Shown: piece after piece, positions 440-62,493 of the stretch
Numbering within the stretch: the first letter of the stretch is position 1
How the letters are laid out: every line of letters begins with the position of its first letter
Source: Naegleria gruberi
Taxonomy: Eukaryota
Assembly: GCA_000004985.1 (NCBI GenBank)
Contig: GG738901.1
Length of the DNA: 64,000 nt
Direction: 5' to 3' (one strand)
Made by a program: the position numbers and the translations under genes
Notes under the pieces: model-generated
Databases searched by the model: none
The model's input: only the letters and a program-made list of their open reading frames with translations
What the model was told of the DNA's origin: nothing

Positions 440-914
440 TGCGGCAACACACTGTGGTCTCAGGGTCAACAGTGTAGTTACTGAGTGGTATGACATTTTT
501 TTTGAGACGAAATTCAAGAAAAAAATGTAATTTAGTGAATTGTATTATTATTGAGCTTTTTCTTAATGACAGAATTTCCAAAATAAAGATCATTGCATTT
601 TCCTACCATTAAGGTTAAGTTTATTTGAATCTCCGGCCACTGGTTATATAGATTTGTGGGTGATGATCTATTCTATTGCGTTGAATAAAGTCAATGACCT
701 AAAAGGCAGCATTTCTGAGCAACATACCTCATCCTTTGGATGAAGAATATGTTGAGTGAGCTTCTACCCATTGGTTTATCAACGATTGTTTTATTGTTTC
801 TTTTGGAGAAATATGCGTTTTGAAATCTCTTTGTCATTTCAATTTTGGATTTGATTTTGCAAATTTTTTGATGATCAGTCTTTCGTAAGAGGTGAACTGA
901 CTGTTCAAGAAAAA

Positions 915-2633
915 ATGTCAGCAACACTAACAAACCTCTCACACGATGATCTGTTTAATATTCTCGATTTTATTTATCCCTTCTTTTCAGAATATGTCAA
1001 GGCAGTAGGAGGAAAACAATTCGAAGCTCAACATAAACGAGAATATTTAGCCAAGATAATTTTCGGAATTATGAAAGGAAATAATGAGAGGAAGGATTGG
1101 ATTTTGGATTTTCGTGGTAAACACTCTAAAATTATGGGAATTAAACTTGTTTCCAATTTGAATTATAATGAATACTTTTACAAATCGCTCGACGATTCGA
1201 ATGTTTATGTTCCTGCTTTATATTTGAGAAAGTTTTATGAGGATTTAGTTAAGGAAGTGAAGAATTGGTTACTCATTGCAAAGAATGGTCTTTTCTATGA
1301 AATTTTAATGCAAAGTCACATTCCAATAGTTCAACTTTTTTGGGAAAGTTTATTTCACATTATTTAGAGATACTCCTATTATTATGGGAAGTATGAAGTT
1401 TAAACAATATTACAATTTGGAATTGCCAATGATTCAGGATTATATTTTGGATAATATTATTGTGCATGTGATGAAGGCAGTGGAGGAACCAGTTTGGTTA
1501 TTCGAAACTTTTGTTTTCAATGAAATTTCATCTAAAGATGCCCATAGTTTGGGATTCAAAAGTTATCTACGACATTACCAGTTAGAAGAAGGTGAAAAAC
1601 ACGAATTGTATCAGGATGTTTTGGTGGAAAAGAAAGATTGGACGAGTTTGGCAACTGACAATCATTGGGAAGGTTTCTTGATGTTTCTTTCGGATTGTTT
1701 TAACAGATATCCAACTATTTTAAGTGATTCCAAATATGTAGACTTTATCAATTCTCAATTTGAAAAAGATCTAGGAAGGATTTCAAAATTTACTACTGAG
1801 CTTGCCAAATTCCTTTACCTTGACAGAAATATTCCGATTAATCCTATAATTTCAAACAAGTTGTTTACTCTGTTATCATTCACACCAGTTTTTAAACAAA
1901 TTCTAGAAAAGAAACTGAATGAATTAAGGATAACGACAAGGAAAGAAACTCGTTTCTTGCAAATCTCTTTTTAAGAGATTCACTACTTTCTTCCTCTATT
2001 TTAAATTTACAATTCGAAATAATTGACATGCATTTAGATTATATGGACGAATGTTTGGATAGTAAGGTGATTGATTCACACTTCTCAAAGTGCCCTGTAG
2101 TGACTTATTTCATAGAGGGTGCCCTAATGATGGAAGATTTAAGCGATCCATTGAAAAGTTCCATGATTGTTATTGAGTACATTGAGAAATTTAGGAAATT
2201 ATTCGAAAGGTTCAATAGAAAAAATTTTGGTTATTCAATTTATAGAAATATCATAACATTGTTTTCAAATTTCACCCGCAGTGGTCTTACAGAAGATTCA
2301 TATGAATGGCAGTAACGTTTTATAATCTTTACTGAACTATTCCAAAACCTGGTTTCAAATAAGATTGACGATTTACCCGAAACTGACCTATCTTTTATTT
2401 TCAGATATACCTCCAATGAAAAGATTATCACCTTCCTATTCGAACAACCACCACTATTCCATCAAATGTTAGCAAGATACATTCCAGATAGAATTAATGA
2501 AAATCTTTTGAAAATTATCGAGAAATATGTTGGCAATAACAATTCATATTATCAGAGGAATCAAATTGCAATATCCAATGATGAGAAAAATCTCAATGCT
2601 AAATCTACTACCACTTCTACTTTAAGATTATAA
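915..2633 (+). CDS. Hypothetical protein locus read as four ORF blocks; two phase-consistent introns plus one unresolved frame break
   Basis: ATG at 915 follows an A-run. ORF 915-1367 and ORF 1384-1974 overlap in open frames around a T6 run (1336-1341), which suggests a 1-nt indel. Proposed introns are 1952-2037 (GTTTCT...TTTAG, phase 1) and 2312-2404 (GTAACG...TTTTCAG, phase 2). The last exon, 2405-2633, ends ...STTTSTLRL*. No domain was recognised. Confidence 0.5.
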
Positions 2634-8323: not shown

Positions 8324-9808
8324 ATGCTTAAAATCAGTTCTACTACTGCCTTCACGACTCGCTCACCAACAATCAAACAACAATTGCAAAAACAAATCTT
8401 TTCCGATGATATTTGCTTTGAAATTTTATCATTTCTTGATTTTAAATTTATTCTAACGAATTGTTGTTTAATTTCTCATCAGTGGGAGAATGTCATCAAT
8501 GTACAATCTAATTTATCAGTCATTTTCAATAATCAAAAAGTGACGAATGAATTTATTGATAAATTAATGAAAAATAGTTATTTGAAACGTTTCGTTTCGT
8601 TGAAAACTAGAGAAAGAAGCTTTTTGCATGATCGAGAAAAAGTTTTGAAACTTGTTGGAATGATGCAGAATTTGAAATCACTCTCCATTGTTGGTAATGG
8701 ATTAGTGGATGAACATTTGAAAGAAATTAGTGAAATGAAAGGTTTAACTTTACTCGATGTGAGTGAGAATAAGTTTGGAAAGGAAGGTGCGGAAAAAATT
8801 AGTGGAATGGTTGGATTGACCACATTGAATATTAATGATAATTATATACTTGATGAAGGGGCTAAATTCATTGGAACGATGAAACAATTGACCTTGTTGA
8901 AAATGAAATATTGTGAAATTAGAGAAGAAGGTGCGAGAGCAATAAGTGAATTGAAAAATTTAACATTTCTCAATCTGCATGGTAATTTTATAGGTGATAA
9001 AGGAGCCAGCTATATAAGTGAAATGGTCAATCTGACACATCTCAATGTTGGTAGCACCCAATTGACAGCTGAAGGGGCAAGACATGTTAGTGGACTCAAA
9101 AATCTGAAATCTCTATTGATTCATACCAATCAAATTGGACATCAAGGAGCAAAGTGGATTAGTACAATGAAAGATCTGGAAGGGTTGACTTCACTTGATG
9201 TTAGTGGAAACTCCATTCTTGATCAAGGAGTACAATATTTGAGTGAAATGTCAAATCTGACACATTTAGATATTGGAAGTAATCATGTTGGAGTTAAAGG
9301 AATTGAATCAATTATTGGAATGAAAGGATTAATCTCGCTAAATGTCAGTAGTAATGATTTGGGATCATCAGGAGCAAAGTTAATCAGTGGAATGTCAAAT
9401 TTAACCTCACTAAACATTTCAGCCAATCGACTATTAGGTGAAGGAGCTAAATTTATTGGAGAAATGCATAACGTAACAATATTAGTTATCAGAAACAATG
9501 ATATTGGTGATGAAGGAGCCAAATTCATTTGTAAAATGAAACAATTGAAATCTCTCAATGCTGTGTATAATAGAATATCTTCGAAAGGATTTGAATCAAT
9601 AAGTGAAATGAAACAATTAACATCACTTGATATTGGTTACAACAGTATTGACTCAAAAGGAGCTAAATCTGTTCGCAAATTGAAAAATTTGACTTCTCTC
9701 AATGTCAGAAGTAATATGATAGATGATGAAGGATTGAAAGCTATTGGTCAACTCAAAATTCCTTATCTAACCACTGGATATCAACAAGCAAAACAATCCA
9801 ATAATTAA
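8324..9808 (+). CDS. F-box-like + RNI-type leucine-rich repeat protein
   Basis: A 494-aa ORF starts at ATG after an A-run. The N-terminal F-box-like string is ICFEILSFLDFKFILTNCCLISHQWENVI. About 16 tandem 24-residue repeats follow, of the form LTxLxxxxNxIGxEGAKxISxMKx. Confidence 0.85.
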   Translation: MLKISSTTAFTTRSPTIKQQLQKQIFSDDICFEILSFLDFKFILTNCCLISHQWENVINVQSNLSVIFNNQKVTNEFIDKLMKNSYLKRFVSLKTRERSFLHDREKVLKLVGMMQNLKSLSIVGNGLVDEHLKEISEMKGLTLLDVSENKFGKEGAEKISGMVGLTTLNINDNYILDEGAKFIGTMKQLTLLKMKYCEIREEGARAISELKNLTFLNLHGNFIGDKGASYISEMVNLTHLNVGSTQLTAEGARHVSGLKNLKSLLIHTNQIGHQGAKWISTMKDLEGLTSLDVSGNSILDQGVQYLSEMSNLTHLDIGSNHVGVKGIESIIGMKGLISLNVSSNDLGSSGAKLISGMSNLTSLNISANRLLGEGAKFIGEMHNVTILVIRNNDIGDEGAKFICKMKQLKSLNAVYNRISSKGFESISEMKQLTSLDIGYNSIDSKGAKSVRKLKNLTSLNVRSNMIDDEGLKAIGQLKIPYLTTGYQQAKQSNN

Positions 9809-28300: not shown

Positions 28301-29406
28301 TTATTCAGTCTTAGTCTTCTTCTTCTTGTTCCAATGAGGCTTACCACCACGTCCACCAAAGCCCTTTCTCTTATTCTTATTGCTTTCAGCAAACTTAGCT
28401 TCACAGGTCTTAGCAATATACTTTTCCAAATCTTCTGGAGCCATTTCCGAAGCAACAGCTTTACCTGGAAGTTCAATCTTTCCTTCATCGAATTGTTGTT
28501 TAAGAGAATCGAAAACTTCCTTTGATTCCAATCGAAGAATAGCCTTGGTCTTATCACCATCGAGTGGGAAATCAATAAACTTCAAACCATTCTTCTTGTT
28601 GTATGGCAATTTCTTGGAGAAATCAGCAAATCCGAACTTTTCGTCACCTTCAATTCCTTGAATGTGCAAGAAAAAGTTTTGCTTCAATTCAGTTTGCATA
28701 TTAGAAACATCTTCTTGCTTCTTTTCTTGATTCTTCTTTTGCTTACTTTCTTCACGTTCCTTTCTCTTTCTATCAAAATGTTGTTGCTTGGTTTCCAAGA
28801 GGAGAACAGATTCTCCAAACTTGAAGTCAGACTTTCCAGCCAATTCATTAACAGTAGATTCAGAATCGAATTCAATGAAAGCAGATCCCTTGAATGTACC
28901 ATTCTTTTCTCTTCTGGCTCTAACACAGACAACTTTACCAAAAGGTTCAAAAAGAGCCTTGATTGAATCGAGATTAGCAACACTTTCATCGAGTGGGAAT
29001 CCCTTAGCATATAAAGTACGAGCATTGCTAGTATCAACTTCTGGAAGAGCAGTGATTCTTCTAACCAACTTTCCTTCAGCATCAATTTCCAACATGGAAC
29101 TCTTCTTCAAAGCAGAAACAATAAGATCCATATCAGTAGAAATTTGTTTCATTCTATTAAAGGAAGCAATAGTCTTAAGTTCAACATCTATTCATCATCA
29201 TCATTATCAAATTATCATCATCATCAACAATAATATCAATGTATGGGATATCGGTTAATCAATATTGACAATATAAAACACTTACATCCTTCAGGATTGT
29301 TAGCAACGAGACTTCTCAAAAATTTATCCTTTGGAAGATTACTATCACTAAAGTAGAATTCAACTTGTTCACGAATCTTGTTTGAAGTAATTTCAGCGTC
29401 AGACAT
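28301..29406 (-). CDS. La protein (La motif + RRM), 2 exons
   Basis: Exons are 29406-29286 and 29187-28301, with a 98-nt intron (GTAAGT...GAATAG, phase 1) and a total of 1008 nt. The spliced product reads MSDAEITSNKIREQVEFYFSDSNLPKDKFLRSLVANNPEGYVELKTIASFNRMKQIS..., which is a canonical La motif. An RRM follows (RTLYAKGFP...KGSAFIEFDS), then a Lys/Glu-rich tail. Confidence 0.9.
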
Positions 29407-31269: not shown

Positions 31270-32250
31270 TTACAGAACAAATCTTGGTACGTTCTCATTT
31301 TCCTGTGCTAAATAATTTATATTATCAATGTTATTCATTGATAACATGTTTCCAATATTAAATTGAGTAAGGTCTGTATTCTGAGAGAGGAGAAATGTCA
31401 GAATAGTTTCAGAATCATTTGGTCCTGTATATTCTGTGAAATAATCAGAGAAGGGATACTTTTCCAATTTTTCCTTAAAGAGATCAAGCTTGGTAAAAAC
31501 TATTGAAACATCCGCTGGTATATATTCTGAATAATTTACAAATTCACTAAAATTTTGTAAAGCCAACCAAAGACAATTAGCTCCAGAAATTGAGTCTGTT
31601 AAATTGTAATCTGCAAGGGAAATTAAATAAATTACTCGTGTCATGGTATTGTCAAAATGAGAAATCCACTTTCGTTTCTCATTTCTTTGTGGACTAGGAT
31701 CAATTAGTTTACTTGTTTCAAATGAAAATTCATAAATTGATGACTTGGAATGAGGTATTTTAGTTTGTAAAAGATCATGAATTGTAAAATCTGCATTGAT
31801 TGCTTGTAATTTGGCAATGAAATTCTCAGAAAAAAAGTATCGAATATTTTCCATATATCTGAAATGATGTGAAATGAATTCCAATTCCTCACTCTTTAGC
31901 ATTGTTAAATATTTCATAAATTCGATCATGCTTGATGTGAAAACTCCACTTTTCCTAGCTTTTTTAATTTCCTCATTTAAATTACTGAATTTAAAATCGA
32001 CTATTTTGAATGTTTGCCAACAGATGTCCAAACATCGAATGACATACTTTCGAATATGCAATTCTCTTTCTTCCGCATTCATCATGCTATTAGTTTCTTT
32101 CGATAGATGATAAATTCCATGTCGAAAGGTTGACTTTCCACTTGAACATGCTCCTAGAATTAGTATTTGTTTTTTGCATGGTGTAATTCTGCGTCTCAAA
32201 GCAGTATCAATAGCTTGACTGTGAAGTTTCTGCTGCTTTCGTTTACTCAT
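31270..32250 (-). CDS. Heterotrimeric G-protein alpha subunit-like protein with degenerate GTPase motifs
   Basis: A 326-aa ORF starts at ATG after an A-run. It aligns to G-alpha-i across ILILGACSSGKSTF (P-loop kept), IDPSPQRNEKRKWISHFD (versus DVGGQRSERKKWIHCFE), VIYLISLADYNL and SIVFTKLDLFKEKLEKYPFSDYFTEYTG (versus IILFLNKKDLFEEKI...YPEYAG). Confidence 0.85.
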   Translation of the reverse strand: MSKRKQQKLHSQAIDTALRRRITPCKKQILILGACSSGKSTFRHGIYHLSKETNSMMNAEERELHIRKYVIRCLDICWQTFKIVDFKFSNLNEEIKKARKSGVFTSSMIEFMKYLTMLKSEELEFISHHFRYMENIRYFFSENFIAKLQAINADFTIHDLLQTKIPHSKSSIYEFSFETSKLIDPSPQRNEKRKWISHFDNTMTRVIYLISLADYNLTDSISGANCLWLALQNFSEFVNYSEYIPADVSIVFTKLDLFKEKLEKYPFSDYFTEYTGPNDSETILTFLLSQNTDLTQFNIGNMLSMNNIDNINYLAQENENVPRFVL

Positions 32251-32623: not shown

Positions 32624-35600
32624 ATGTTGAACAATAAATCTGAGCGAAGTGGTGATGAAAAAGAGGAGGATCTTGTGATTCAGAATCCCTCTAACTGTAA
32701 ATGTAATAATCACAACAATGGTAAGCAGCATCTTGAAGGGACAAATTTAATGCAACAACCACAACCACTGTTGGATGATGATGTGAATGATATTCTTCAA
32801 TTATTAACAATAGAAAGTTGCAGTGGAGGTTGTAGCTTTGATTGTCTTAAATTCGAAGAGAAGGAAGCAGTCGAAGAGGATACCTGTAATCCAATGTCGC
32901 AACAACATCTTCCTTCCGATATCAAATCGGAACCAATTCTCCTACTGCTTACTGATAAGAAGGCAACATCAACAATGGATCACAACGTAAGTTATCATCA
33001 AACATGTAAATTAACGTGCCATTTGGGCGATTTGACTAATTCAGAAGTCGTATGCATCTAACAAACAAGGCGACAATTTTCATCATGAAAAAAGAACAGA
33101 CAATATCATCAACAAGAAGAACAAGGCTTCCTCATCATTAGGCAGTGCTTTTAAAGAAGATTTTGTAAATTTTGTTTCAGAATCCACAAGTTCCTCTTAC
33201 ATTCCGCAACAGCCATTCACAACATTATATTCGAAAAGAATGAAGGACGAAGAGATGGTGGAGAATAATCAATCTACTGTTAATGAAGATGGAATCAAGA
33301 CATCATCTGAAGCTAAACCAACACAATTTAACCACTCCTCACATCATCAAAGGCCTCATCATATTAACAAGGGTCTCGGAGAAGAACAACAATACAAATT
33401 TCCTTCATCTATTACACCACTTTCACTGGCCAATATTCATGCCAATGCATCGACTAACTTACTGCTAACTTCATCAACATTATTTAATTCTTCAAGTGAA
33501 TCACATGGTGGTGGAACCATTTCGAGAAGCTCCTCCAATACTTCAATGGATAGCTCCTCCTATTCACTCTTGAATAATCACCATCATCTAACCACATCTT
33601 CCTCACCCTCTGATGGTTTTCACTCAACTCTAAAATCCCTAGAAAATGTTCTCCCTCCATTCTTTACTCCATGCGTGCCACCTCATGCATCATTCAATTA
33701 CTATTCAGAACATTATTGGGGAGAACATCCCTTATCACTAACCTCCTTCTCTCCAATTCTTCATTATGAAAAGAAGTCATCTCTAACGATTATTTGTCGA
33801 TACACACCACAACAAACTAGGAATTCTCCAAGAAGGGAGAGACCTTCCTCTCAAAAAGAATTAATAGAGAATGAGATTTATTGTCTGAAAGTTTCACTGG
33901 ACAAACCATCCATTCCAAAGCTGGAAAGGGATGCAGAAATTTCTCGATTCTTGACCAATGAATTTTCTCAAGTGTTGGATCCAGCACAACAGGTTATTGT
34001 CAGTACTAAGGCCTATTTGTCTGATTATTTTATTCTCGTGAGGGAGTTTATTGATTGTGTTTCGTTGAGATCATTTATTGATAGATCGAAAACATATGCT
34101 AGAGCAGAACCAATTACTGATGAGAATTTTGAAACCTTAACAGATGATACTGTAACACTTCTCAATGAAGAACAACGAGTGAAAGAAAACATTACAATAT
34201 TGGAAAGTAATTTAACACTTGCTATTTCTATTTGTATGAGTGTTGCTCAACTGCATCACTCAAGAGTTTGTCATGCTGACATTAGGCCAGAAAATATAAT
34301 TGTAGAAGGACCTAAATGCAATATAAGATTGATTGATTTTGGAAAGAGTACATTCCTCCCTTTGGAGCATCCATTTTTATATACCGATAAAATTATTGGT
34401 AGTCAAATGTATTGTGCTCCAGAGGCAACAGGAAAGATTCCAAAACCAATAGGTTTCCACACTGATATATATTCACTTGGATTTGTTCTCTTTGAGTTAT
34501 TTTCCAAAGAACATCCATTTACCAAGTTTAGGACATTAGATTTCGTATTTCAACATTTGACTCAACAGCCAGAGTCCTTGTTTCAAAATCTAGCGAGAAG
34601 GTCTTTTATATCAGCCAATGAAGGAAACCTATTCACAGCTGCTACTAAAGCAATTTCAAGACTAATTACCAAAGCAATTCAAAAATCTATTGAGAAACGT
34701 TATTTGAGTATTTTTGGATTGAAACGAGATTTGGTCTACATACAGAATGCTATTCAACTAGAAGATATGGAAGCTCTTGAAAATTTTCAAGCTGGTATGA
34801 ATGATGTTCAAACAACTTTATCCATACCTTATGGTGTATATGGTAGAGAGGAAATTTTCAAAAAATTGGAACTGAAACTTGAAAATATGATGGAATCTAG
34901 TGAGCCAACGATTGTCCTTCTGGGGGGCTATAGTGGCATAGGTAAATCATGTATTGTTAAGGAGTTTAGGACAAGAAGTAAAACAGCAATACAATTCTTT
35001 GAGGCAAAATACGATCAACATATGAATGTACCTTACTATGCCATTATTTCCATATGTAAACAAATTATTGGCGACGTTCTTGGAGAATCTGAATCAGTGA
35101 TTAAGGATTTCAGATTCCAACTTGGTACACTTATCAATTCAGATCAATTAGAAATGTTGAGTGATGCAATTCCTGACATGTCATATTTATTTACAACTAA
35201 TGCAACCAAAAAGCATACCTCCCCATCAATGGGAGATCAGAATGGAGAGCGTATGAAGCTCTTTTCACAAGGAAGTAAGTAATATTTTGAATTTAACATT
35301 ATAACAATATTATATTGCTCAGTTATTCATCTCTTTAGTGTTTATACTCATTTAAAGAAAAAGAGGTTATGCATTTTCTTGGATGACTTGCAATGGACTG
35401 ATTTTGATAGCATGAAGCTATTGAAGGAAATTCTTGGAACTGGTTCTTGTGATACTGTTCCTCTTTTAATTATTGGAGCATATAGAAATAACGAAGTGGG
35501 AAAGGACCATCCTCTATTTTACTTTTTAGAAAATCTCAAACTTAAAGTGAACATTGAAGAAATTGAAGTTGTTGAGTTGACAGAAGATCAATCTAACATG

Positions 35601-38600
35601 ATTGTCTCAGAGTCTTTAAGGAAAAATAGAGCTGAAACAGAAGAACTAACCAAAATACTCTTCTCTAGGACGAATGGAAACCCCTTCTTTTTAAAGCAGT
35701 TATTGGCTGGTTTATTTAAGGACGGATCTATTTATTTCGATACTCAAACAGATACTATTACATGGGATAAAAAGAAAATAGAAAATGCAGAATACTCTGA
35801 AAATGTTATTGACTATCTCCTTGGACATTTGGAAAAATTACCAAAACAAACACAAGATATTCTTGCATTTGCTTCTTGCTTTGGAAATAAGTTTTCCAAT
35901 GAAGACATGCTCCACCTACTCAATCAGCAACAAGAAGAAAAGATAGACTTGATGCAACTTAAAGAAAGATTGAACTATGCGGTGAAGGAGGGATGGATTT
36001 CAAATATCAATTCTGGTAATTTACGATTTAATCATGATAGACTCCAACAAGCTGCTTATGAATCACTGCCTTTGAATGAAAGGTTGAGAATTCACTATAC
36101 CTATGGTAAGCAGCTTCTCAAAAAAGCAGAAGAAGATGATTCTTTGGAGGAACGTTTATTTGATATAGTTGTACAGTTAAATCACAAACATAATGATCCT
36201 GCTTTCTTGGAGAATAGAGATGAGAGAAGATTACTCATTGACCTCAATAATAGAGCTGCAAAGAAGGCTTTGGAAACATCATCTACAGATAAAGCCATTG
36301 GCTTTGTTTATATTGCAAGGCAAATTCTAGAACACGAACCAGACTGTTGGAGTGAAGAAACTTATAAGTTGGCTTTTGAGAGTTTACTAATTGTTGGTAA
36401 TTGTAACTATTCTGTAAATATAGAATTGGCAACCTCTCTATTCATGGAAGCTATTCAAAAAGCTCAAAACAAGACAGATCTTTATGAGGCATGCAACCAT
36501 GGATTGATGGCCTATCTTTCACAAGGAAAATATGAAGATGTGTTTAAAATTTTGACTGATCATGTATTTACTACATATGAAGAGTTGAATTTCCTTACTC
36601 AGGAGCATACTGTTGAATCCTTGACAACATGGATACTTAACAAGATGAAATACATGAAAGAACATGTGCTCGTTAATTTTACTCAAAAATCTGACATTCT
36701 CAATTTGCCAGATATTGATGATTTGGAAAAGTGGCATCTTATTTGTTTGCTCACTCAATCCTGTCCTGCTGTTTTTCATATGAATAACTCACTCAGCAAA
36801 CACTACTTTATGATTATGATATTAATATCGTCTGATATAGTTTTAAATAATGGCATTACTCCTCTTTCCCCATTGTTAATTTCAGTCTTTGCATGGTCTT
36901 GGTGTAATTTTGAGTTTTATCCTCAGATGAACATGTTCTTAGAGGCAGGATTAGAGATGGAAAAGACTAGATTCAGGAATGAGCATGAATTGGCAAGTTG
37001 CACATTGATGAAGTTGATGAGTTATTACTTTTCGCCAACAATTAACCCTCTTGAGGTGTGGAATATATCCGAGGAAGCCTTCTTATTGTCTGTGAAATCA
37101 AAGAACAAACACTATGGCGGTTTCTCTATTCTGTGGTATCCATTCCATCACTTATTCTATAGCCACGGAGATGTAAAGACTTCTATTGGATTGAGCTTGA
37201 ATTCAATTGAGATTTTCAAGAGAAATGGAAATGTTATGTTGATGGATGCCAGTAAAATGATACTGGAATTGAAATATGTTCTTTCAGGAGATGTAGACCA
37301 TTACCTGCCAACGTATGTAAGCCAAGTGAAGGAATATCCATTCTTTAGACAAATGCACTACTCGTTCAAGGGAATTTCACTCTATTTCCAAAATGATATT
37401 GAAAAATCTTTCAAGTGTATGGAAAAATCGTATGATTTTAGAGAAGACTCTGTTGGTATGTGTTCAAGCTGGATTGATTTAATCTTCCTAGGTTTAATCT
37501 CAGCTATCTTTTTGAGAAGTGCTCAAGAAAAGATTGAAAAAGCCCAAGAAATACTGAAATATTCTATAGAAAGATTGGAAATGATTTCCCAAGCTAATTC
37601 TTCTGTTTTTCTTGCTCCTTTGGAGTTCATAAGAGCCGAGACATTGTACTCAGAATATTGTAGAACAGGTGTCGAAAATACTAGAAAAATCATTTCTCAC
37701 TACAGAAAGAGTTATATTATGGCTGAAAAGGAAAGAAACACCTTTTTAGCTAGGCTGATTAATTTGAGAACAGGAGAGTTTTACAACAGTCTAGGTATGG
37801 ATGATGGTATTAGTGGAAACTACTTCCTTAGAGCTATGGAATCTTTTGAACAGTTTGGTGCTTCCATCGTTGTTGATTATATTTTGGAGAATTATTCAGG
37901 TCACATCGATGGCTATTCATCATTTAGTAATAGAAATCCTGAACAAGTATTCTCTAACACTTCTCTATCTGATGAAACAACAGATCACTCTCTTGCTGGA
38001 GTAACAAAGAGCAGAATTTCTGAATCAACAGAATTGGATTTTAGAGAGATTTTCATTTCAATTCTGCCAATTCTTTCAGAACAAACGTTATCACCAAGAT
38101 GTTGTTTGATTTTGAAGAGAGATTCAACAGTTTATGTAGATGCCGAATTTAATGCAGACCTGAATTCTATTGAAGCACTTTCGTCTACCAAACAATTCGA
38201 AAATAGTGATTTGGACAAATTTTCAGATTTATTCCCTCTCAAGATGATTCACAGAACTCTAAGATCCAGAACAGAGCAACAACTCGTATGGAATGACAAT
38301 GAGAAAGAGTATTACTTTGTGAAGAATGTAGTGGCCTCTGCTTTATCTATTCCTATCATGAAGAAAAAGACAGTCATAGGTATGCTTTTTATTATTATTT
38401 TATTTATATTATTTAATGTATTAAGGTTGTATATACTTGGAAAATAAGGAAACGAAGGATGTATTCACAACTGAAAAAATTAACCTTGCCAAACTTATCA
38501 TCTCGATCAGTTTGGACAATGCTGGAATTTTCACATCTATTAACAAATCCTATGCTAGGTTTTTACCTGCTGAATTCTTAAAGTTGCTTGGAAAGAGTCA

Positions 38601-39423
38601 CGTAACTAAGGTAAGGTTGGGCGATGCAGTTTCTAGAGAAATGACAGTGCTCTTCAGTGATATTTATGGATTTACAGAGATTATGGAGGGACTTTCTGCA
38701 AAGGATGGCTTTGCTTTTATTAATCTACTATTGAAGAGTATTGCACCTCCAATTTCAAGAAACTCTGGATTTATTGACAAGTTTGTTGGTGATGGAATAT
38801 TGGCATTGTTTATTGAACCGCAAGGAGCTGTCACTGCAGCTTTAGAAATGATTTCAGAATTGGAAGTTTTCAATAGTAGAAATAATACCAATGTAAAGTT
38901 GGGAGTTGGTTTGCATCATGGTATTGTTCAACTTGGTACGATTGGATATGAGCAACGATTGGATGCTACTGTTATTTCAGATACTGTGAACACAGCTAGC
39001 AGATGTGAATCTCTCACAAGAACTTTTCATTCACATATTCTAGTTACTAAACCAGTTATGGATGCTGTTACAGTGCCACACAGTGTGATAAGTACCGAGT
39101 TGGGTAAATTCATGCTGAAAGGAAAACACATACCTCATCAAATTTACAATATCGCTTCTAAATCATGGAAAGGAAGTGGTAGTGCTAAAGAATTCGCTTT
39201 ACTAAGCAAAGTTATTGATCTCTTCTCCAGGAGTGAATTTACCGAATCATTTGCCCTCGCAGAAACAATTCTCAAGAATACAAAGAACAATACCATTATA
39301 GCTGCATGCAACATGTATAAGGAAGCATCAACATTATACGGATCAGTTGTTTTACCAAGTGAATGGCAAGGTGAAATTCGGTTGACCAAGGATGGAGAAG
39401 TCAGAGAGTACTTTTCAAAATAA
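32624..39423 (+). CDS. Multidomain signalling protein: Ser/Thr kinase-like domain, AAA/STAND-type P-loop NTPase, helical/TPR-like region, GAF-like domain, class III adenylyl/guanylyl cyclase (4 exons, 2,215 aa)
   Basis: Exons are 32624-32986, 33045-35274, 35323-38379 and 38426-39423. The introns are 58, 48 and 46 nt (GTAAGT, GTAAGT and GTATGC ... AG), and the total is 6648 nt. Kinase strings are VCHADIRPENIIV, IDFGKS and MYCAPE. The P-loop is LLGGYSGIGKSCIV and the Walker B is LCIFLDDLQWTD. The GAF end, restored by splicing, is TVIGCIYLENKETKDVFTTEKINLAKLIISISLDNA. Cyclase strings are MTVLFSDIYGFTE, IDKFVGDGILALF and ISDTVNTASRCES. Confidence 0.85.
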
Positions 39424-39582: not shown

Positions 39583-42039
39583 ATGAAAAAACGACATTCA
39601 ACCTTTTCCACCACAATCAATCATCGAGATTTGATTAAATCATCTAATTTTAATTCATTATCTACTAGTAATATTCAATCATCATCATCACCAATATTGA
39701 GCACTACTTCTAGAAAAGGCTTCCGAGAACGACCACTCATCAAATTCATATTAAAACAACGTTCCAAACGATTGCAACAACAAGGCTCTAGTGAGTTTGC
39801 TGGTGCGGAAGTGGAAATTTTGAAGGCTTGTTGGAGAAAAATAGAGGAAGAGGAGATGAAGGACTATCGAGAAAATCTCTCGAATCGATTGGGGTTTTAT
39901 TTTGATGATGAGGAATTGTTGGCCATGTTCGGAAATCAATTGATGAAGGATGAAGAGGAACTACAGCAGAGGACGACAATGGATACTACCAACACTGAAC
40001 CAAGTTCGGCTGGTGGTGCTACTCTTGACAATTCTTCACTGAAGAGTGGTGACAGTGCTCGTTCATTGACAAGTTTCGGATCTGACTCGAAACTAAATTC
40101 GCCAATTAGTCCCAACCTCGACAAGAAGCATTTGCAGTCAACTTCATCGACCAAAAGCTCCACTTCATTTGCATCCTTCTCTGGTGCACCATCATCACTC
40201 ACACCAAGCCCAAACATTGAGGAGAACAAAAATCTTTCCTACCTCTACGATATTCATACTTTTCCTAGCAAGCTGAATCTGATACCAACCATGCATTATA
40301 ATGTGTTGGATGTTGTTGAGTTGTCCTCTGTACAGCAAATTGTAAATATAACAAGTCCTTCTTCGGAGATTGGGATACTTAAAGATTGTACAAATGATTC
40401 TTCTCCTACTGTAAATATTGAATCAACCACTTTTAGTCTCGAGATTTTAGATAGTTTTATTACTGTTGATTCTTTTGAAGATTTTTCAAATCCTTCATAT
40501 AATCCACTCAATATTAGACATTTATATTGTGATTATTGGTCCAACAAACTAGAATTCAAACAAAGGATCAGTAAATCTTCTCTTACTTCAAACAATAAGA
40601 AGGAAAATGAAAAATCAAAAAACTATATACCATTTGAAGAATTGGAAAAATGTAGAAATTGTACAGAACTCAAATTGAACAATAACAAGATTAGATCTCT
40701 AGATTCTAAACATTTTACCAATTTTGCACACTTGACAGAATTGAATCTATCTTCGAATAGAATGTCTAAAGCAAGACTGCCTGAGGATATTTTCTCACAT
40801 ATGCCACATTTGCAGAGGCTTTCTCTCGATTATATGGGTCTTAAGACTCTACCAAAATCAATTAACAAATTGGTAGAGCTTACCTACCTTTCACTTTCCT
40901 TTAACAAATTGAACACTTTCAACTTGCTACATGGAAAAGACAGACACTTGAATGATTTTTGGCCAAAATTGACCAATTTGGAGTACTTGAATTTGTCTGG
41001 AAATAGATTGAATAGATTTCCTTCAGAAATTTGTAATTGCAAATCATTGGAATTTTTGAGTTTGTCCAACAATAGAATAATTAACGAGATACCAAAGGAA
41101 ATTGAAAATCTCAAAAAATTAGCAATACTCTTCTTGAATGGAAACAAAGTTACTGCTCTTGATATTAATAGAAATTTGGAATTTTTAGAGAATTTGACCC
41201 ATTTGGAATTGGGTCACAATCCTAATATCCATGTGGTTCCACCTCCTGTTTACAATTTAACCAAATTAGAATCACTCTGTTTGAGCCATCTAACCATTAG
41301 TCATTTATCGGATGATATTGGAAAATTAAGAAATTTGACTCACTTGGATTTGTATGGCTCCAAACTAACTGGTCTTCCAAAGGGTATTTCACAGCTTATC
41401 AACCTTAGGAATTTGGATATGCGATATTGCAGAGGTATCAAGGAGTTCCCTATTGAATTGTTTGGTCAAAAAGTTTCAAGTAGCACTATCACTACTACCT
41501 CTCCAATGAAATCCCTTACTAGATTGAGTCTTAGCTATACAATGATAGAGAGCATTCCTGAGGATATTTCCTCTCTCCAGAGTTTACAAGCACTTTTGGT
41601 GAATGACTGTCCCTTGCTCGAAGAAATTAAGGGTATTGACAAGCTTGTCAATCTTGTAGAGTTTGACATCAGTCGTTGCATCTCCCTTGTTGAGCCTCCT
41701 TCTGATGTGTGTGAGAGAGGTCTTGCCCACATTAGAGGATATCTGAAAGAAAAGGACGATGGACCTTCTATTTTTTTAAAGTTTATTGGATCAGTATTTG
41801 GTGGAAATACCTCAAATAATTCCTCCACCAACAAGAAGAAACTACCTTCACCAATAGGCACAGAAAACAACCTCAAAGTGGAACACAATGAATTACTTGT
41901 TGCCTCACCAGTACCAAGCATTAATTCTGGAGATGATGATGGTGATAGTGATTCTGATGATGAGATTGGCGCATCTAAAAAGAAGAAACCAAGTCCAAGT
42001 GGCAGTACTGTCAAGTCATTATTTTCCTTTTGGAAATAA
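39583..42039 (+). CDS. Leucine-rich repeat protein (typical/SDS22-like LRRs, SHOC2-like array) with low-complexity N-terminus
   Basis: An 818-aa ORF starts at ATG after an A-run. About 15 repeats of the form LxxLxLxxNxLxxLPxxI run from ~residue 360. The tail is acidic and basic. Confidence 0.85.
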   Translation: MKKRHSTFSTTINHRDLIKSSNFNSLSTSNIQSSSSPILSTTSRKGFRERPLIKFILKQRSKRLQQQGSSEFAGAEVEILKACWRKIEEEEMKDYRENLSNRLGFYFDDEELLAMFGNQLMKDEEELQQRTTMDTTNTEPSSAGGATLDNSSLKSGDSARSLTSFGSDSKLNSPISPNLDKKHLQSTSSTKSSTSFASFSGAPSSLTPSPNIEENKNLSYLYDIHTFPSKLNLIPTMHYNVLDVVELSSVQQIVNITSPSSEIGILKDCTNDSSPTVNIESTTFSLEILDSFITVDSFEDFSNPSYNPLNIRHLYCDYWSNKLEFKQRISKSSLTSNNKKENEKSKNYIPFEELEKCRNCTELKLNNNKIRSLDSKHFTNFAHLTELNLSSNRMSKARLPEDIFSHMPHLQRLSLDYMGLKTLPKSINKLVELTYLSLSFNKLNTFNLLHGKDRHLNDFWPKLTNLEYLNLSGNRLNRFPSEICNCKSLEFLSLSNNRIINEIPKEIENLKKLAILFLNGNKVTALDINRNLEFLENLTHLELGHNPNIHVVPPPVYNLTKLESLCLSHLTISHLSDDIGKLRNLTHLDLYGSKLTGLPKGISQLINLRNLDMRYCRGIKEFPIELFGQKVSSSTITTTSPMKSLTRLSLSYTMIESIPEDISSLQSLQALLVNDCPLLEEIKGIDKLVNLVEFDISRCISLVEPPSDVCERGLAHIRGYLKEKDDGPSIFLKFIGSVFGGNTSNNSSTNKKKLPSPIGTENNLKVEHNELLVASPVPSINSGDDDGDSDSDDEIGASKKKKPSPSGSTVKSLFSFWK

Positions 42040-43740: not shown

Positions 43741-46563
43741 TTAAAGGTCATCATCTGATTCAACCTCTTCGACTCCCTCCACTATTGGTTCTTCTTCTTC
43801 TACAATCATAGGGCCACTTTGATTGTCAACTCTGGCTTTGGTGAATTTGTAGAGTTTGTCCAAGAGTGAACGACCTTGATCCCACCAAGAAATATCAACC
43901 TCATGATAGGTGCCACGAAGTGGATTGATAACTCCAATATTCTTAATTTCCATTCCATCCAATCTAGCCATGGCTGCATAGCAGAGTAATTGAATAATCC
44001 ACTCAACTTCAATATCTTGGGATACCGAACATTTAATATCAATAATGGTCTCGCCATCAATGATGATATCTGCCTCTCCAGTAACATGTTTTCCATAACT
44101 GAGACTTCTATGGGTATTAACTGAGCTTTCAGTTTTTTCTACAATAAATGGAACAAAGTGCTCTTGTAAATTATTGAACAGTTCTGTATAGTTTGGAGCA
44201 ATGTCCTTAATAAAGTCAAACTTTTTCTTTAGATTGGTATTGCCAAGATAGAGCATTCTGGTTCTTCCCTCTTTAACAACTGCATCAAGTTTGGAAATTT
44301 CGAATACACTTTCTAGAATATCAATTGACTCATAATTTGGATTTGTAAAAATTCTGTAAGCTGTTTTTAAACTGTCTACATAACCGGGTGGGAAGGCATA
44401 TTCTGTCATTACTGGAATAACCTCGAATGAAAATTGTCCCTTCTCCAATATTTTCTCGAAAGATTCAATAATCTCAGTCATGACTATCTTTTCATAGCCA
44501 TCAGTAATAGATTTTAACAAAGCTTTTGGAGGTTTTCCATTTCTCATCAACTGCTTCAATTTCTTTGCATATCTATTAAAGACCTGGATACTGCCTGTAT
44601 TTAATACGATTGCCTCGTTAATGAAGAGTTCAGTGCATGTATGACTAAAACCTCCTCCATTAGGTATTTTCTCAGAAATCATTCTACAAAATAAAGTATC
44701 AATAAAGTTTCCAAAGTCTGTAAACATTTGATTTTCGTAAACCACGTCACAGTATGCAAAGTCTGTATCCACAATTTTGGTTTTCGTAAATTCGATTTGT
44801 GGCAAACATCCTTCTTCCTTGAGTATTGTCATGAGTTCTCCATCAATATTACGAACCATATTTGTTACGGTGTATGGATTAATAGATGAGTCGGATGCTG
44901 ATCTTGGCTGTTCTGAAATACGCAAGTCTGTGGGACTATGTAATCTGAATACGCTACGATCAATCTCTGTTATATAACTCAAACAAGTTGCTGTCTTGGG
45001 GAGAACAATGTGTAACTCATCCTTTGCTCTGGTAACAGCCACATATAATACACGTCTTAGTTCCGCATCATTATCACCTTTCCATTTATCATTTGATGAA
45101 TCCACCAAGAAAACAATATCCCACTCCAAACCTTTAGACTTGTGTATGGTTGATAGGCAAACTTTTCCAGTTGTTGTGTGTCTTTCCATTTCCTTTAAAG
45201 ATTTTGATTTTTCCATAATAGTAATATGTGGAATGAAGAATTTAGATAATTGTTCCTCTACCTTATAGAGACCATAATTTGTTGGAGAAAGGATTGCTAT
45301 TCTTTCTCTTGGCACTCCACGTTTCAAATATTCTGATATTTTCTTAGCAACATACAAACCCTGGTTATCATTTACAATGATTGGTTTAAGATTAGATTCT
45401 CTTGTGGTTGTCATTTCTTTTGGAATATTATCTGGATTATTTCTCAAAATTGCATTTGCCACTTGCAAAATTTCTGGCGTACTTCTATAATTTCTAGTCA
45501 GTGTTAACAGCTTAGAGTTTGGATATTTTGAGTGAAAATTCAAAATATGTTCCACACTGGATCCTCTCCATGAGTAAATGTTTTGCGAATCATCTCCTAC
45601 GGCAATTATCTTGCATCCTCTTTTGTGAAACTCTTCAAAAATCTCTGCTTGAAAATTATCAATATCTTGATACTCATCAATTATGAGATACTTTTTCTTT
45701 TTACAAATTTCATCCGCAATTTCTGGATAATTCTTCATTAAGTTCCTCAATCTATATCCATATTCAATCACACAAGCTTGAGAATCAAAATATTGCCAAT
45801 ATTTCTTCAATGTCTTGTAAGCAAATGCATCAATGGTTCCAATAGTAAATTTACTCTTAACTCCAATACTGGCAAGCTTTTCCTTCATATCATTTGCTGC
45901 CAATCTTGAAAATGTTGTCAACATGATCTGATGAGCTGGAATTTTCAAATACTTTATCATGTAAACAATTTTACAAATAATGGTTGTTGTCTTTCCACTT
46001 CCAGCGCAAGCCAACACTAACAAGTCATCATTCACATCTCCAAAAACAACTTGCTTTTGTTCTTCACTCAAATCAATCTGTACATCATCAATTGTAAATG
46101 TTTTCATAATTTCCTCTTCGGATGGAAAAACAATTTCCTTCTTCTTCCTTACTCTTTTTACAGGCTTTGAAATTTCCTCATCACCTCCAAAATTAATTTC
46201 CGGCATTAAACTAATTGCCTCATTACTCATAGCATTAATGATTTCTTCCTTTTCTTGAGGTTGGTGAGTAGAAAATAATTCCTTCACCTCATCATCTTGT
46301 TGCTTCAAAGTCTGTTTCCTTCTCGTAGCATTATTAATCAAAGATTGAGAAAAACATCTCCTCATCATTACATGATTCAATAAAGTAGAGTTATTGGTTT
46401 TCAACAAGGCTGATGAAGATCCTGTCGGGAATGATTTATTTCCACCATTAATTTTAATATGATTAATTATATTATTGTTATTACTATTTAAATGATGTAA
46501 AGTTGAAGTGGATGATAATGTATTCAAGCGATAGAGAAGTGAATTGTGCTTGATGTTGCGCAT
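43741..46563 (-). CDS. UvrD/Rep/PcrA-type SF1 DNA helicase fused to a C-terminal PD-(D/E)xK (RecB/Cas4-like) nuclease domain
   Basis: A 940-aa intronless ORF. Helicase motifs are I ACAGSGKTTT, II YLIIDEYQD, III VGDDSQNIYSWRGS, IV RNYRSTPEI, V STIHKSKGLEWDIVFL and VI LYVAVTRAKDEL. The C-terminal string is GEADIIIDGETIIDIKCS...EWIIQLLCYAAM. The N-terminal ~100 aa are Ser/Asn/Arg-rich and may be a targeting sequence. Confidence 0.9.
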   Translation of the reverse strand: MRNIKHNSLLYRLNTLSSTSTLHHLNSNNNNIINHIKINGGNKSFPTGSSSALLKTNNSTLLNHVMMRRCFSQSLINNATRRKQTLKQQDDEVKELFSTHQPQEKEEIINAMSNEAISLMPEINFGGDEEISKPVKRVRKKKEIVFPSEEEIMKTFTIDDVQIDLSEEQKQVVFGDVNDDLLVLACAGSGKTTTIICKIVYMIKYLKIPAHQIMLTTFSRLAANDMKEKLASIGVKSKFTIGTIDAFAYKTLKKYWQYFDSQACVIEYGYRLRNLMKNYPEIADEICKKKKYLIIDEYQDIDNFQAEIFEEFHKRGCKIIAVGDDSQNIYSWRGSSVEHILNFHSKYPNSKLLTLTRNYRSTPEILQVANAILRNNPDNIPKEMTTTRESNLKPIIVNDNQGLYVAKKISEYLKRGVPRERIAILSPTNYGLYKVEEQLSKFFIPHITIMEKSKSLKEMERHTTTGKVCLSTIHKSKGLEWDIVFLVDSSNDKWKGDNDAELRRVLYVAVTRAKDELHIVLPKTATCLSYITEIDRSVFRLHSPTDLRISEQPRSASDSSINPYTVTNMVRNIDGELMTILKEEGCLPQIEFTKTKIVDTDFAYCDVVYENQMFTDFGNFIDTLFCRMISEKIPNGGGFSHTCTELFINEAIVLNTGSIQVFNRYAKKLKQLMRNGKPPKALLKSITDGYEKIVMTEIIESFEKILEKGQFSFEVIPVMTEYAFPPGYVDSLKTAYRIFTNPNYESIDILESVFEISKLDAVVKEGRTRMLYLGNTNLKKKFDFIKDIAPNYTELFNNLQEHFVPFIVEKTESSVNTHRSLSYGKHVTGEADIIIDGETIIDIKCSVSQDIEVEWIIQLLCYAAMARLDGMEIKNIGVINPLRGTYHEVDISWWDQGRSLLDKLYKFTKARVDNQSGPMIVEEEEPIVEGVEEVESDDDL

Positions 46564-61037: not shown

Positions 61038-61916
61038 TTAATTTAGTTTAATAAAACTAGGTGGAACACTTGGAAAGTGTTTAATATATTCAATTCCTCC
61101 TCCATTAGCTATTTCGTCCCTATGAATATCGAGATATTTCAAATTCTTCATTTCACTAATCAATTTTGCACTATCAGCTTTCAAACGATTATCGAAAATA
61201 TTGAGAGCTGTCAGATTGTTCATTTCACAAATGTGTTTAGCTCCGTTGTGAGTTATATCACTGCAGGCAATGTCGAGTTTAGTCAACTGATTTAGTTCAC
61301 TTAAATATTTGGCTCCTTCTTTCTCAATACTATTTCTGTGAATACTGAGATCGGTCAATTGTTTCAATTTGCAAATTGATTTGACTCCCTCGACATCCAT
61401 TCTATTACAAGCAATATCAAGATATGTTAAATTTTCAAGTTGACTAATATATTCAGCTCCTTCATTTCCAATATTATTGTAAATAATATTGAGCTCTCTC
61501 AATTGTTTCAATTTACCAATCTCCTTGGCACCTTTTACTCCAAGTTTGTTCATTCCTATATCAAGCTTTGTCAATTGACTCATCTTTTGTAAAGCATCCA
61601 AAACATTGTCCAAAACTCCATCTTCCAACAATGTGTTTAATTGAAATTTCGCACCAATAACATTTTCCAAAAATTCACTTTGCATCATTAGTCTACTATT
61701 TTCTAAAGTGATACTTTGGGTAAAGTGCAAATTAATTTTGGTGAATTGTTTAATAATTTGCTTCCACTGTTTAGAAATTAAAACACCACTCCATAGTAGA
61801 AATTCATGTGGAAGATATAAAATTATTTCTGAACAAATATCATCGGGAAAGTTGAAATTATTCAGAGTTTTGATGCTTGTGGTTGTGGTGGTGGTGCTTG
61901 TTGTGTGATTAATCAT
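61038..61916 (-). CDS. F-box-like + RNI-type LRR protein
   Basis: The tracked ORF starts at a TTG (62084). The first ATG (61916) follows an A-run and removes the overlap with the upstream ORF. It has an F-box-like string DICSEIILYLPHEFLLWSGVLISKQWKQII and about 8 repeats of 24-25 residues with xGxEGAKxIS. Confidence 0.8.
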   Translation of the reverse strand: MINHTTSTTTTTTSIKTLNNFNFPDDICSEIILYLPHEFLLWSGVLISKQWKQIIKQFTKINLHFTQSITLENSRLMMQSEFLENVIGAKFQLNTLLEDGVLDNVLDALQKMSQLTKLDIGMNKLGVKGAKEIGKLKQLRELNIIYNNIGNEGAEYISQLENLTYLDIACNRMDVEGVKSICKLKQLTDLSIHRNSIEKEGAKYLSELNQLTKLDIACSDITHNGAKHICEMNNLTALNIFDNRLKADSAKLISEMKNLKYLDIHRDEIANGGGIEYIKHFPSVPPSFIKLN

Positions 61917-62061
61917 TTTTTTCTTGTTAAATTCATTAGAGTTTAATGAAACCTTCTTGGTTTTGGAGATTTTTTGGTGTTTCTTTTTGGTTGACTTGTT
62001 AAAAGTGGTAACACTCAATATTTCTATAAATAATTTGAGTGTGTTTGTAATTATCTCGAGA

Positions 62062-62493
62062 TTATTTGTTGTTGAATAGCTCAATAATTTCCTTTACCTG
62101 GGTTGGGTAGAACTTGGATTCAAATGTCATTCCAGTGCATTGAATAATTTGTGATCTGTGACATGGACCAAAGAGTTTGAGAATGCATTTGGCAAAATCA
62201 TTGCTAGTTGTCTTCTTTTTATCATCGTCTAGTAGTGTCCAATTAATATCCAAAATTTCCAAAATTAATTTGGAAATACTCGCATTTTCACCATCCAATT
62301 TGAGGATTACTTTCTTGGATGGATAAGAATAAGTGAACAACATTTCTAATTTGAAAGAAAGCTCAGATAAAGTACCATTTGCCATCTCAAACATGGCATT
62401 GGCAAATATCTTCTCCTCATGAATATATTCTGTAAATCCAATGCTGTAAGCTTCATGAAGTGTGAAATACTTGAGCTTGGAAGATGAATTCAT
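62062..62493 (-). CDS. 143-aa ORF, probably the 3' part of the upstream gene (62453-63751) rather than an independent gene
   Basis: It has an ATG at 62493 without an A-run context. It overlaps the upstream ORF by 41 nt in another frame, and its own frame opens only 10 codons before the ATG. Confidence 0.4.
   Translation of the reverse strand: MNSSSKLKYFTLHEAYSIGFTEYIHEEKIFANAMFEMANGTLSELSFKLEMLFTYSYPSKKVILKLDGENASISKLILEILDINWTLLDDDKKKTTSNDFAKCILKLFGPCHRSQIIQCTGMTFESKFYPTQVKEIIELFNNK

Follow-up and report, generated by a model that had tools for sequence, protein, structure and literature searches.

An intact G-alpha gene with altered G boxes

The window analysed here is a stretch of 64,000 nucleotides of Naegleria gruberi DNA (assembly GCA_000004985.1, contig GG738901.1). 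It contains a gene for a divergent G-protein alpha subunit (G-alpha), NAEGRDRAFT_72962, which lies between a gene for a seven-transmembrane (7TM) protein and a large gene with kinase and cyclase domains (Table 1). NAEGRDRAFT_72962 keeps the G-alpha fold and the P-loop, lacks the characteristic residues of three of the five G boxes, and shares these losses with four other proteins. The protein may represent a catalytically degenerate G-alpha that acts outside the nucleotide cycle.

The open reading frame (ORF) begins with ATG and runs intact for 326 codons plus the stop codon. The coordinates given by the initial annotation are exact, as seen from the ORF list and from a 100% identical N. gruberi protein, XP_002672027.1 (UniProt D2VVC0), whose database label is merely 'predicted protein'. 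At the base composition of the window (31% GC), the chance of an open frame of 326 codons is ~2e-11. The protein matches Pfam PF00503 with E=3.9e-44 and 151.6 bits (cutoff 48.8) over profile positions 3-302 of 333, the G-alpha domain beginning at residue 10. In addition, phmmer against the PDB matches it to solved Go, Gi and Gq alpha subunits at E about 1e-15. NAEGRDRAFT_72962 is a real, intact gene of the G-alpha family, and tblastn detects no second G-alpha in the 64-kb window.

The AlphaFold2 (AF2) model, calculated from a 103-sequence alignment, has a mean predicted local distance difference test score (pLDDT) of 87 and a predicted template modelling score (pTM) of 0.83. It is composed of an alphaN helix (helical at residues 2-20), a Ras-like core and an inserted helical domain with six helices, which occupies residues 59-149 between beta1/alpha1 and beta2. 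No disrupted fold elements are found in the model. Foldseek against the PDB gives Gi, G11 and Gt alpha subunits as the best matches (E about 5e-16, template modelling (TM) score 0.71-0.76), and the best 50 matches are all G-alpha chains with TM scores of 0.70-0.76. The Ras-like GTPase domain, the all-helical insert and the N-terminal helix of the family are thus all found in NAEGRDRAFT_72962. The structure prediction, which the initial annotation had proposed as a check, returns the G-alpha fold, and its secondary-structure register agrees with the hand alignment on which that annotation was based. The same hand alignment is matched by the phmmer and MAFFT alignments.

The motif states described below were taken from phmmer pairwise alignments to G-alphas of the PDB, from a 104-sequence MAFFT multiple sequence alignment (MSA) including human G-alpha-i1, and from the AF2 secondary-structure register. 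Family positions are numbered as in G-alpha-i1, and conservation counts refer to the 98 other G-alphas in the MSA. The P-loop reads GACSSGKST and is kept, as initially proposed, with equivalents of Gly40, Gly45, Lys46, Ser47 and Thr48 present and Glu43 replaced by Ser. Switch I reads DLLQTKIPHSKSSIYEF. Here the Arg finger Arg178 (R in 83 of the 98) is replaced by Lys164, Thr181 (T in 88) aligns approximately with His167 and Thr182 with Ser168, and Gly183 is replaced by Ser171. Gly183 is the residue changed in the classical RGS-insensitivity mutation G183S (N. fowleri G-alpha study), RGS denoting regulator of G-protein signalling. The switch I loop carries a 2-residue insertion and is devoid of Thr, which leaves the exact Thr equivalent ambiguous. 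In the initial annotation the Arg and Thr positions of switch I had been read as K and S; the Lys is supported by all alignments, whereas the Ser is a fair choice for a position shared ambiguously between His167 and Ser168.

The G3 motif DVGGQ is replaced by DPSPQ. The Asp and Gln are retained, and Val201, Gly202 and Gly203 are changed to Pro, Ser and Pro, respectively; the substitution of Gly203, which is Gly in 92 of the 98, and the retention of the Gln agree with the initial reading. The adjoining switch II helix (G-alpha-i1 204-217) keeps six of its seven strongly conserved family columns, compared with one of four in the G3 loop. Equivalents of Arg205, Glu207, Lys210, Trp211 and Phe215 are all present in this helix. 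The G4 motif reads TKLD. The accepted G4 consensus is (N/T)KXD (PMC8584482), and Thr occupies the first position in 6 of the 98 other G-alphas, Asn269 being Asn in 92. TKLD is therefore a permitted G4 variant, so that the initial reading of the letters stands while their description as a rewired motif does not.

At the G5 position, where TCAT is expected, the sequence reads LSMN, in a loop that AF2 places between beta6 (298-302) and alpha5 (308-320). No (T/G)(C/S)A triplet occurs within residues 300-309 in any alignment register, in line with the earlier failure to find TCAT; Ala326 is Ala in 87 of the 98. The alpha5 helix is 13 residues long (308-320, DSSP), followed by a tail (321-326) with pLDDT < 50, and 17 residues follow the conserved Asp, compared with 26 in G-alpha-i1. 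The initial annotation also reported that a canonical receptor-coupling C-terminus is missing. The C-terminus is indeed short and without TCAT, yet a homologous beta6-alpha5 element with a hydrophobic tip (FVL) is present, corresponding to VVF, VIV, TVL and TVL in the four related proteins described below. A hidden 3' intron, whose removal would yield a canonical C-terminus, was considered and rejected: only 133 bp separate the stop codon from the ATG of the next gene, the gene end has no GTAAGT-type donor nearby, the database model is likewise 326 aa, and the related proteins end in homologous short C-termini. At the other end, the N-terminus (MSKRKQQKLH) contains neither Gly2 nor a Cys lipidation site; Gly2 is present in 60 of the 98 other G-alphas.

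Across the family, 34 columns are conserved at ≥85%, and NAEGRDRAFT_72962 keeps 23 of them. The 11 lost columns are Q52, P169, T181, G183, V201, G202, G203, R208 (to K), E236, N269 and A326, and the majority of these sense nucleotide, Mg or gamma-phosphate. Taken by G box, G1 and G4 are present, whereas G2, G3 and G5 are lost (three of five). The initial annotation had named the recovery of canonical G2, G3 and G5 residues by a proper profile alignment as the result that would speak against it; neither the profile alignment nor the MSA recovers them.

A clade of five divergent G-alphas

Searched exhaustively with phmmer, a set of 1.84 billion representative proteins yielded 2181 relatives of NAEGRDRAFT_72962, just four of which, counting NAEGRDRAFT_72962 itself, have E<=1e-30. 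Word-indexed searches, with the protein or with the clade alignment as the query, gave only 2-3 proteins. The three close relatives are NAEGRDRAFT_63704 of N. gruberi (P0003) and C9374_010133 of N. lovaniensis (P0004), both 38% identical to NAEGRDRAFT_72962, and the metagenomic protein P0005. For a second metagenomic protein, P0006 (255 aa, E=1.2e-27), the gene call is truncated. Its gene is located at 792..1804 of locus L003 on the metagenome contig ena:ERZ27315067:k141_1860259; the exon with the P-loop (..LVLGMHGSGKTT..) lies a short way upstream in a different reading frame, pointing to a short intron or a frameshift. P0005 and P0006 come from the same sample, which probably holds an unsequenced heterolobosean-like eukaryote (GC 37-40%).

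In a neighbour-joining tree, NAEGRDRAFT_72962 and P0003-P0006 form an exclusive clade. The mean distance of the clade to other G-alphas is 0.86-0.88, compared with 0.71 +/- 0.04 among the others, and NAEGRDRAFT_72962 lies more than 4 standard deviations above the family mean. Identity among the five members is merely 30-38% (31-38% between NAEGRDRAFT_72962 and its clade mates), and the databases searched yielded no ortholog of NAEGRDRAFT_72962 with more than 38% identity. A metagenome scan with the clade alignment retrieved 80 G-alpha loci, all of which carry DVGGQ at identities of <=34%; no new clade member was found among them.

The altered motifs recur throughout the clade. In the order NAEGRDRAFT_72962 / P0003 / P0004 / P0005 / P0006, the MSA shows K/K/K/Q/K at Arg178, H/R/S/S/N at Thr181 and S/S/S/T/N at Gly183. 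The DVGGQ position reads DPSPQ / DPSDM / DPNEQ / DTSGQ / DPSGQ, Asn269 is T in all five, and the TCAT position reads LSMN / VNLT / VNLC / VNIT / VDLT. All four clade mates thus lack Arg178, Thr181, Val201-Gly202, Asn269 and Ala326, and N-terminal Gly2 is missing from them as well. The losses of NAEGRDRAFT_72962 are also those of its N. gruberi paralog NAEGRDRAFT_63704. Further decay is seen in individual members: Gln204 is changed to Met in P0003, Lys270 to His or Tyr in P0005 and P0006, and Ser47 to Lys in P0004. The Ser/Thr positions of switch I vary across the clade.

Other positions are retained by all members. GxxxxGK is present in five of five, and Asp200, Glu207, Lys210, Phe215 and Asp272 are invariant, together with switch I Ile184 and Glu186 (Ile172 and Glu174 of NAEGRDRAFT_72962) and with Thr253 and Asp256 of NAEGRDRAFT_72962. 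In total, the five members have 27 invariant columns, some of them in the hydrophobic core and in switch II. The clade mates resemble NAEGRDRAFT_72962 in having K/Q at Arg178, in the loss of Thr181 and Gly183, in a G3 motif of the form D-[PT]-[SN]-x-[QM], in a T-x-x-D G4 motif and in a short C-terminus with a hydrophobic tip. They differ from it in two respects. Pro at Gly203 is found in NAEGRDRAFT_72962 alone, whereas P0005 and P0006 keep the Gly, and the alpha5 of NAEGRDRAFT_72962 is the shortest of the five, with even the VNLT-type G5 of the clade gone.

The motif losses are therefore a feature of the clade and are not private to NAEGRDRAFT_72962. Their distribution among the aligned sequences argues that they are old and shared, rather than the outcome of random decay. 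The five proteins constitute a small, fast-evolving paralog clade within the very large Naegleria G-alpha family.

The 2021 review PMC8584482, which cites Anantharaman et al. 2011, gives about 44 G-alphas for N. gruberi; it also points out that some G-alphas of Naegleria deviate in their catalytic motifs, and groups them with the deviants of Dictyostelium and plants. The NAEGRDRAFT_72962 clade is best filed among these already recognised catalytically degenerate G-alphas; what is new here is that the clade is delimited and that the residues kept and lost in it are described, and no new principle is involved. The sole biochemical study of Naegleria G-alphas deals with canonical N. fowleri subunits. 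The five-member clade was evidently not sampled in that study, because the switch II Trp and the switch I Gly are conserved in all 13 of its sequences.

Genes surrounding NAEGRDRAFT_72962

The 7TM gene is located downstream of NAEGRDRAFT_72962, with its ATG 133 bp past the G-alpha stop codon. Its four exons (31136-30768, 30705-30628, 30582-30317 and 30271-29833) are joined by GT..AG introns of 62, 45 and 45 nt, so that two of the three introns are just 45 nt long (GTAAGT..AG). The encoded protein has six strong hydrophobic segments and a weaker one, and lacks a large extracellular domain. It matches Pfam 7tm_3 (class C G protein-coupled receptor, GPCR) with E=5.4e-7 and 30 bits, slightly under the cutoff of 33.5. 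PF00003 is assigned to its orthologs, which show 49% identity in N. lovaniensis and N. fowleri and 42% in Willaertia magna. The 8 kb flanking the orthologous 7TM gene on each side in N. lovaniensis (L004) and in W. magna (L005) contain no G-alpha-like sequence. The locus of the N. lovaniensis clade member P0004 (L001) likewise has no membrane-protein or cyclase neighbour. The initial annotation placed the G-alpha gene right next to a 7TM gene. This 7TM gene is real and class-C-like, but the two genes are not neighbours in N. lovaniensis or W. magna, and their proximity here is for that reason no argument for functional coupling.

On the other side of NAEGRDRAFT_72962, a large gene is transcribed divergently. 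Its kinase and AAA_16 domains are followed by a GTAAGT..TAG intron at ~35283-35340, by about 1000 aa without a Pfam match (35379-38447) and by an adenylate/guanylate cyclase catalytic domain (Guanylate_cyc); a single gene is assumed. The arrangement of receptor, G-alpha and cyclase is treated as a coincidence until shown otherwise, because Naegleria has dozens of G-alphas and many cyclases in a dense genome. In N. lovaniensis, a kinase-coding stretch that is 38% identical to the kinase-AAA_16 gene of the window was found ~5 kb downstream of P0004, in a region without a called gene (PYSW02000040.1, L001 12199..12789, +). This stretch, the only cross-match that the synteny comparison gave, was considered as a sign of synteny and judged to be a paralog, as it consists of a generic kinase domain in an orientation that differs from that in the window.

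The further genes of the window are given in Table 1. Beyond the 7TM gene lies an intron-split gene of the La type, with a La-motif-like N-terminus and an RNA recognition motif (RRM). The leucine-rich-repeat, PARG, 14-3-3, helicase, serpin and DUF4116 genes include no evident component of G-protein signalling.

Table 1 Positions in the window of the G-alpha gene, its motifs and the surrounding genes
Feature	Position	Strand	Basis
Divergent G-alpha coding sequence, complete, single-exon	31270..32250	-	ORF list, PF00503, 100% identical database protein, AF2, Foldseek
G1 / P-loop GACSSGKST, kept (residues 33-41)	32128..32154	-	MSA
Linker 2 / switch I DLLQTKIPHSKSSIYE (residues 159-174)	31729..31776	-	phmmer against Go/Gi, MSA
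G3 motif DPSPQ replacing DVGGQ (residues 184-188)	31687..31701	-	read from sequence and alignments
Switch II helix RNEKRKWISHFDN, well conserved (residues 189-201)	31648..31686	-	
G4 motif TKLD (residues 253-256)	31483..31494	-	
G5 position, LSMN where TCAT expected, motif lost (residues 303-306)	31333..31344	-	MSA
Shortened alpha5 and C-terminal tail IDNINYLAQENENVPRFVL (residues 308-326)	31273..31329	-	DSSP
Class-C-GPCR-like 7TM gene, downstream neighbour, four exons, 383 aa	29833..31136	-	hand-built gene model
Divergent large gene	33240..39423, possibly from 32624	+	Pkinase and AAA_16 (STAND-like) 33240-35282; cyclase domain 38437-39423
La-type RNA-binding gene, intron-split	28301..29406	-	La-motif-like N-terminus (..QVEFYFSDSNLPKDKFL..) in exon 29236-29406; RRM (PF00076, E=3.8e-7) in exon 28301-29152
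Leucine-rich-repeat gene	8324..9808	+	
Leucine-rich-repeat gene	39583..42039	+	
Leucine-rich-repeat gene	61038..62084	-	
PARG gene	12657-14180		
14-3-3 gene	14547-15281		
UvrD-type helicase gene	43741-46563		
Serpin gene	57240-58526		
DUF4116-repeat protein gene	59817-60782		

Possible function and relation to known G-alphas

The initial annotation proposed that NAEGRDRAFT_72962 is a pseudo-GTPase or an atypically cycling G-alpha, which appears reasonable from the motif pattern. We favor, with a probability of roughly 0.55, the narrower reading that it is a structurally intact, catalytically degenerate G-alpha, which would be non-switching, independent of the nucleotide cycle and perhaps a binder of G-beta-gamma. 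The protein would fold as a Ras-like plus a helical domain and would probably hold guanine nucleotide through the P-loop GxxxxGKS/T and the Asp of T-K-x-D. Its coupling to the gamma-phosphate would be lost together with the switch I Thr that contacts Mg2+ and the gamma-phosphate, the Gly-Gly hinge of DVGGQ (Gly203 being Pro) and the Arg finger (Lys), and the base-holding G5 loop would be lost too. In G-alphas, two contacts draw the switches onto the gamma-phosphate, one made by the backbone NH of Gly203 (switch II) and the other by the Thr181 side chain (switch I); a Pro at position 203 has no amide proton. G-alpha-s G226A and G-alpha-i1 G203A bind GTP but undergo neither the conformational change nor the release of G-beta-gamma. 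Moreover, substitutions of Arg178 cripple GTPase activity, and A326S weakens nucleotide binding.

Because the elements coupling to the gamma-phosphate and the G5 loop are lost, receptor-driven switching between GTP and GDP would not be expected in NAEGRDRAFT_72962, and hydrolysis is probably lost as well. The selective retention of the alphaN helix and of the switch II helix (RxExxKWxxxF) makes nucleotide-independent binding of a normal G-alpha partner the most likely role of the protein, with G-beta-gamma as the first candidate. It could thereby function as a buffer, a scaffold or a natural 'dominant negative'.

Several points weigh against this proposal. Gln204, Asp200, Lys46, Ser47 and TKxD are kept, which would permit some GTP binding and slow hydrolysis, and Mg2+ might be bound by Ser168, Ser170 or Ser171 of switch I in place of Thr181. 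Few parts of any G-alpha are as well conserved as the switch II helix, so that its retention is weak evidence for binding of G-beta-gamma specifically, and the N-terminus without lipidation sites makes association with the membrane, where G-beta-gamma sits, uncertain. The alignment given to AF2 consists of canonical G-alphas, so that the family fold is expected whatever the activity of the protein. In addition, a literature search by identifier returned no paper naming NAEGRDRAFT_72962, and the biochemistry of Naegleria G-alphas covers canonical N. fowleri subunits only.

The equivalents of the P-loop, Asp200, Gln204, Lys270 and Asp272, the permitted G4 variant TKLD and the three Ser residues of the switch I loop would all suit an atypical but working GTPase. 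In such a protein, Lys164 and Gln188 would support slow catalysis and a switch I Ser would serve Mg2+, whereas the loss of G5 and the short alpha5 would produce a fast-exchanging, receptor-independent 'self-activating' G-alpha with hydrolysis as the rate-limiting step. Mutations of Ala326 speed nucleotide release, and self-activating G-alphas occur in N. fowleri, as found in the biochemical study. We nevertheless consider a working GTPase unlikely: the change of Gly203 to Pro removes the NH that contacts the gamma-phosphate, and the same loop is stiffened by Pro in place of Val201 and Ser in place of Gly202. The clade mates lose Gln204, Lys270 or Ser47, the pattern expected once catalysis escapes selection, and the candidate Mg2+-binding Ser/Thr positions of switch I are unconserved among them. 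The same losses could be neutral if NAEGRDRAFT_72962 were a decaying or recently dead paralog from the massive, lineage-specific G-alpha expansion of N. gruberi. High redundancy among the roughly 44 subunits (PMC8584482), the most degenerate C-terminus of the clade and the lack of an ortholog above 38% identity in the databases searched agree with this view. It is made improbable by the intact frame of 326 codons, hardly attainable by chance at 31% GC, and by the occurrence of the same losses in intact ORFs of another Naegleria species and of metagenomes, which shows that the state outlasted speciation. The 27 clade-invariant columns and a confident AF2 fold free of disrupted elements point in the same direction.

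The gene order at the locus raises a different idea, namely that NAEGRDRAFT_72962 is the dedicated transducer of the adjacent receptor within a functional cluster of 7TM, G-alpha and kinase-STAND-cyclase genes. The three genes do stand side by side, and the distance between the G-alpha and 7TM genes is very short. This idea is highly improbable, given that the 7TM orthologs of N. lovaniensis and W. magna have no G-alpha-like sequence in the 8 kb to either side and that the N. lovaniensis clade member has neither a transmembrane protein nor a cyclase beside it. In a gene-dense genome in which G-alphas, cyclases and 7TM proteins are all very numerous, chance is expected to bring such genes together once, and the short alpha5 and the lost switch residues speak against classical receptor coupling.

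A catalytically degenerate, nucleotide-independent role of NAEGRDRAFT_72962 could be extended to its relatives. It is possible, though doubtful, that heteroloboseans keep a dedicated clade of natural dominant-negative-like G-alpha pseudo-GTPases, in which the P-loop and the G-beta-gamma face are kept and GTP switching is lost, and which would set the free G-beta-gamma pool or hold receptors or effectors, as an independent, minimal-architecture parallel to the plant extra-large G proteins (XLGs). If true, this would back functions of G-alphas as scaffolds or G-beta-gamma binders outside the nucleotide cycle, and would bear on how the very large set of G proteins in Naegleria, to which the pathogen N. 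fowleri belongs, is to be interpreted. NAEGRDRAFT_72962 is small and single-exon, which makes it a convenient recombinant target.

Compared with the canonical G-alphas (human G-alpha-i1 and N. fowleri G-alpha-1 to -7), NAEGRDRAFT_72962 shows the same two-domain fold, alphaN helix, P-loop, Asp200, Gln204, switch II helix and (N/T)KxD motif, and with 326 aa it belongs to the same length class. In contrast to them, it has Lys at Arg178, no Thr181, Ser at Gly183 and DPSPQ, has lost TCAT, possesses an alpha5 about 9 residues shorter, and carries no Gly2 or Cys3 lipidation site.

The engineered dominant-negative G-alphas, G-alpha-i1 G203A/A326S (5tdh) and dominant-negative G-alpha-o (7ts0), share with NAEGRDRAFT_72962 the substitution of both Gly203 and Ala326. 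The G203A/A326S substitutions block the GTP-induced release of beta-gamma and lower nucleotide affinity. Both engineered proteins were also retrieved in the searches, 5tdh among the Foldseek matches (rank 33) and 7ts0 among the phmmer matches in the PDB. NAEGRDRAFT_72962 differs from them in its residues at 203, where Pro takes the place of Ala, and at 326, which is bulky, in the additional losses of Arg178, Thr181 and Gly202, and in its truncated alpha5. Stable receptor docking, on which the engineered proteins depend, is doubtful for NAEGRDRAFT_72962 because of these extra losses and the truncation.

The plant XLGs provide a precedent for nucleotide-independent G-alphas (PMC8584482). XLG1-3 resemble NAEGRDRAFT_72962 in combining the G-alpha fold with deviating catalytic motifs in degenerate G boxes. 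They differ in being plant-specific and in having a large N-terminal extension with a nuclear localisation signal and a Cys-rich region, whereas NAEGRDRAFT_72962 is minimal and has no extension (PMC8584482). The Naegleria clade is separate in the tree and of independent origin, and its resemblance to the XLGs would thus be functional and convergent only. If the nucleotide-independent role holds, the clade would be the second independent case, after the XLGs, of a G-alpha kept by selection without a GTP switch, and nucleotide-independent G-alpha signalling would have evolved more than once.

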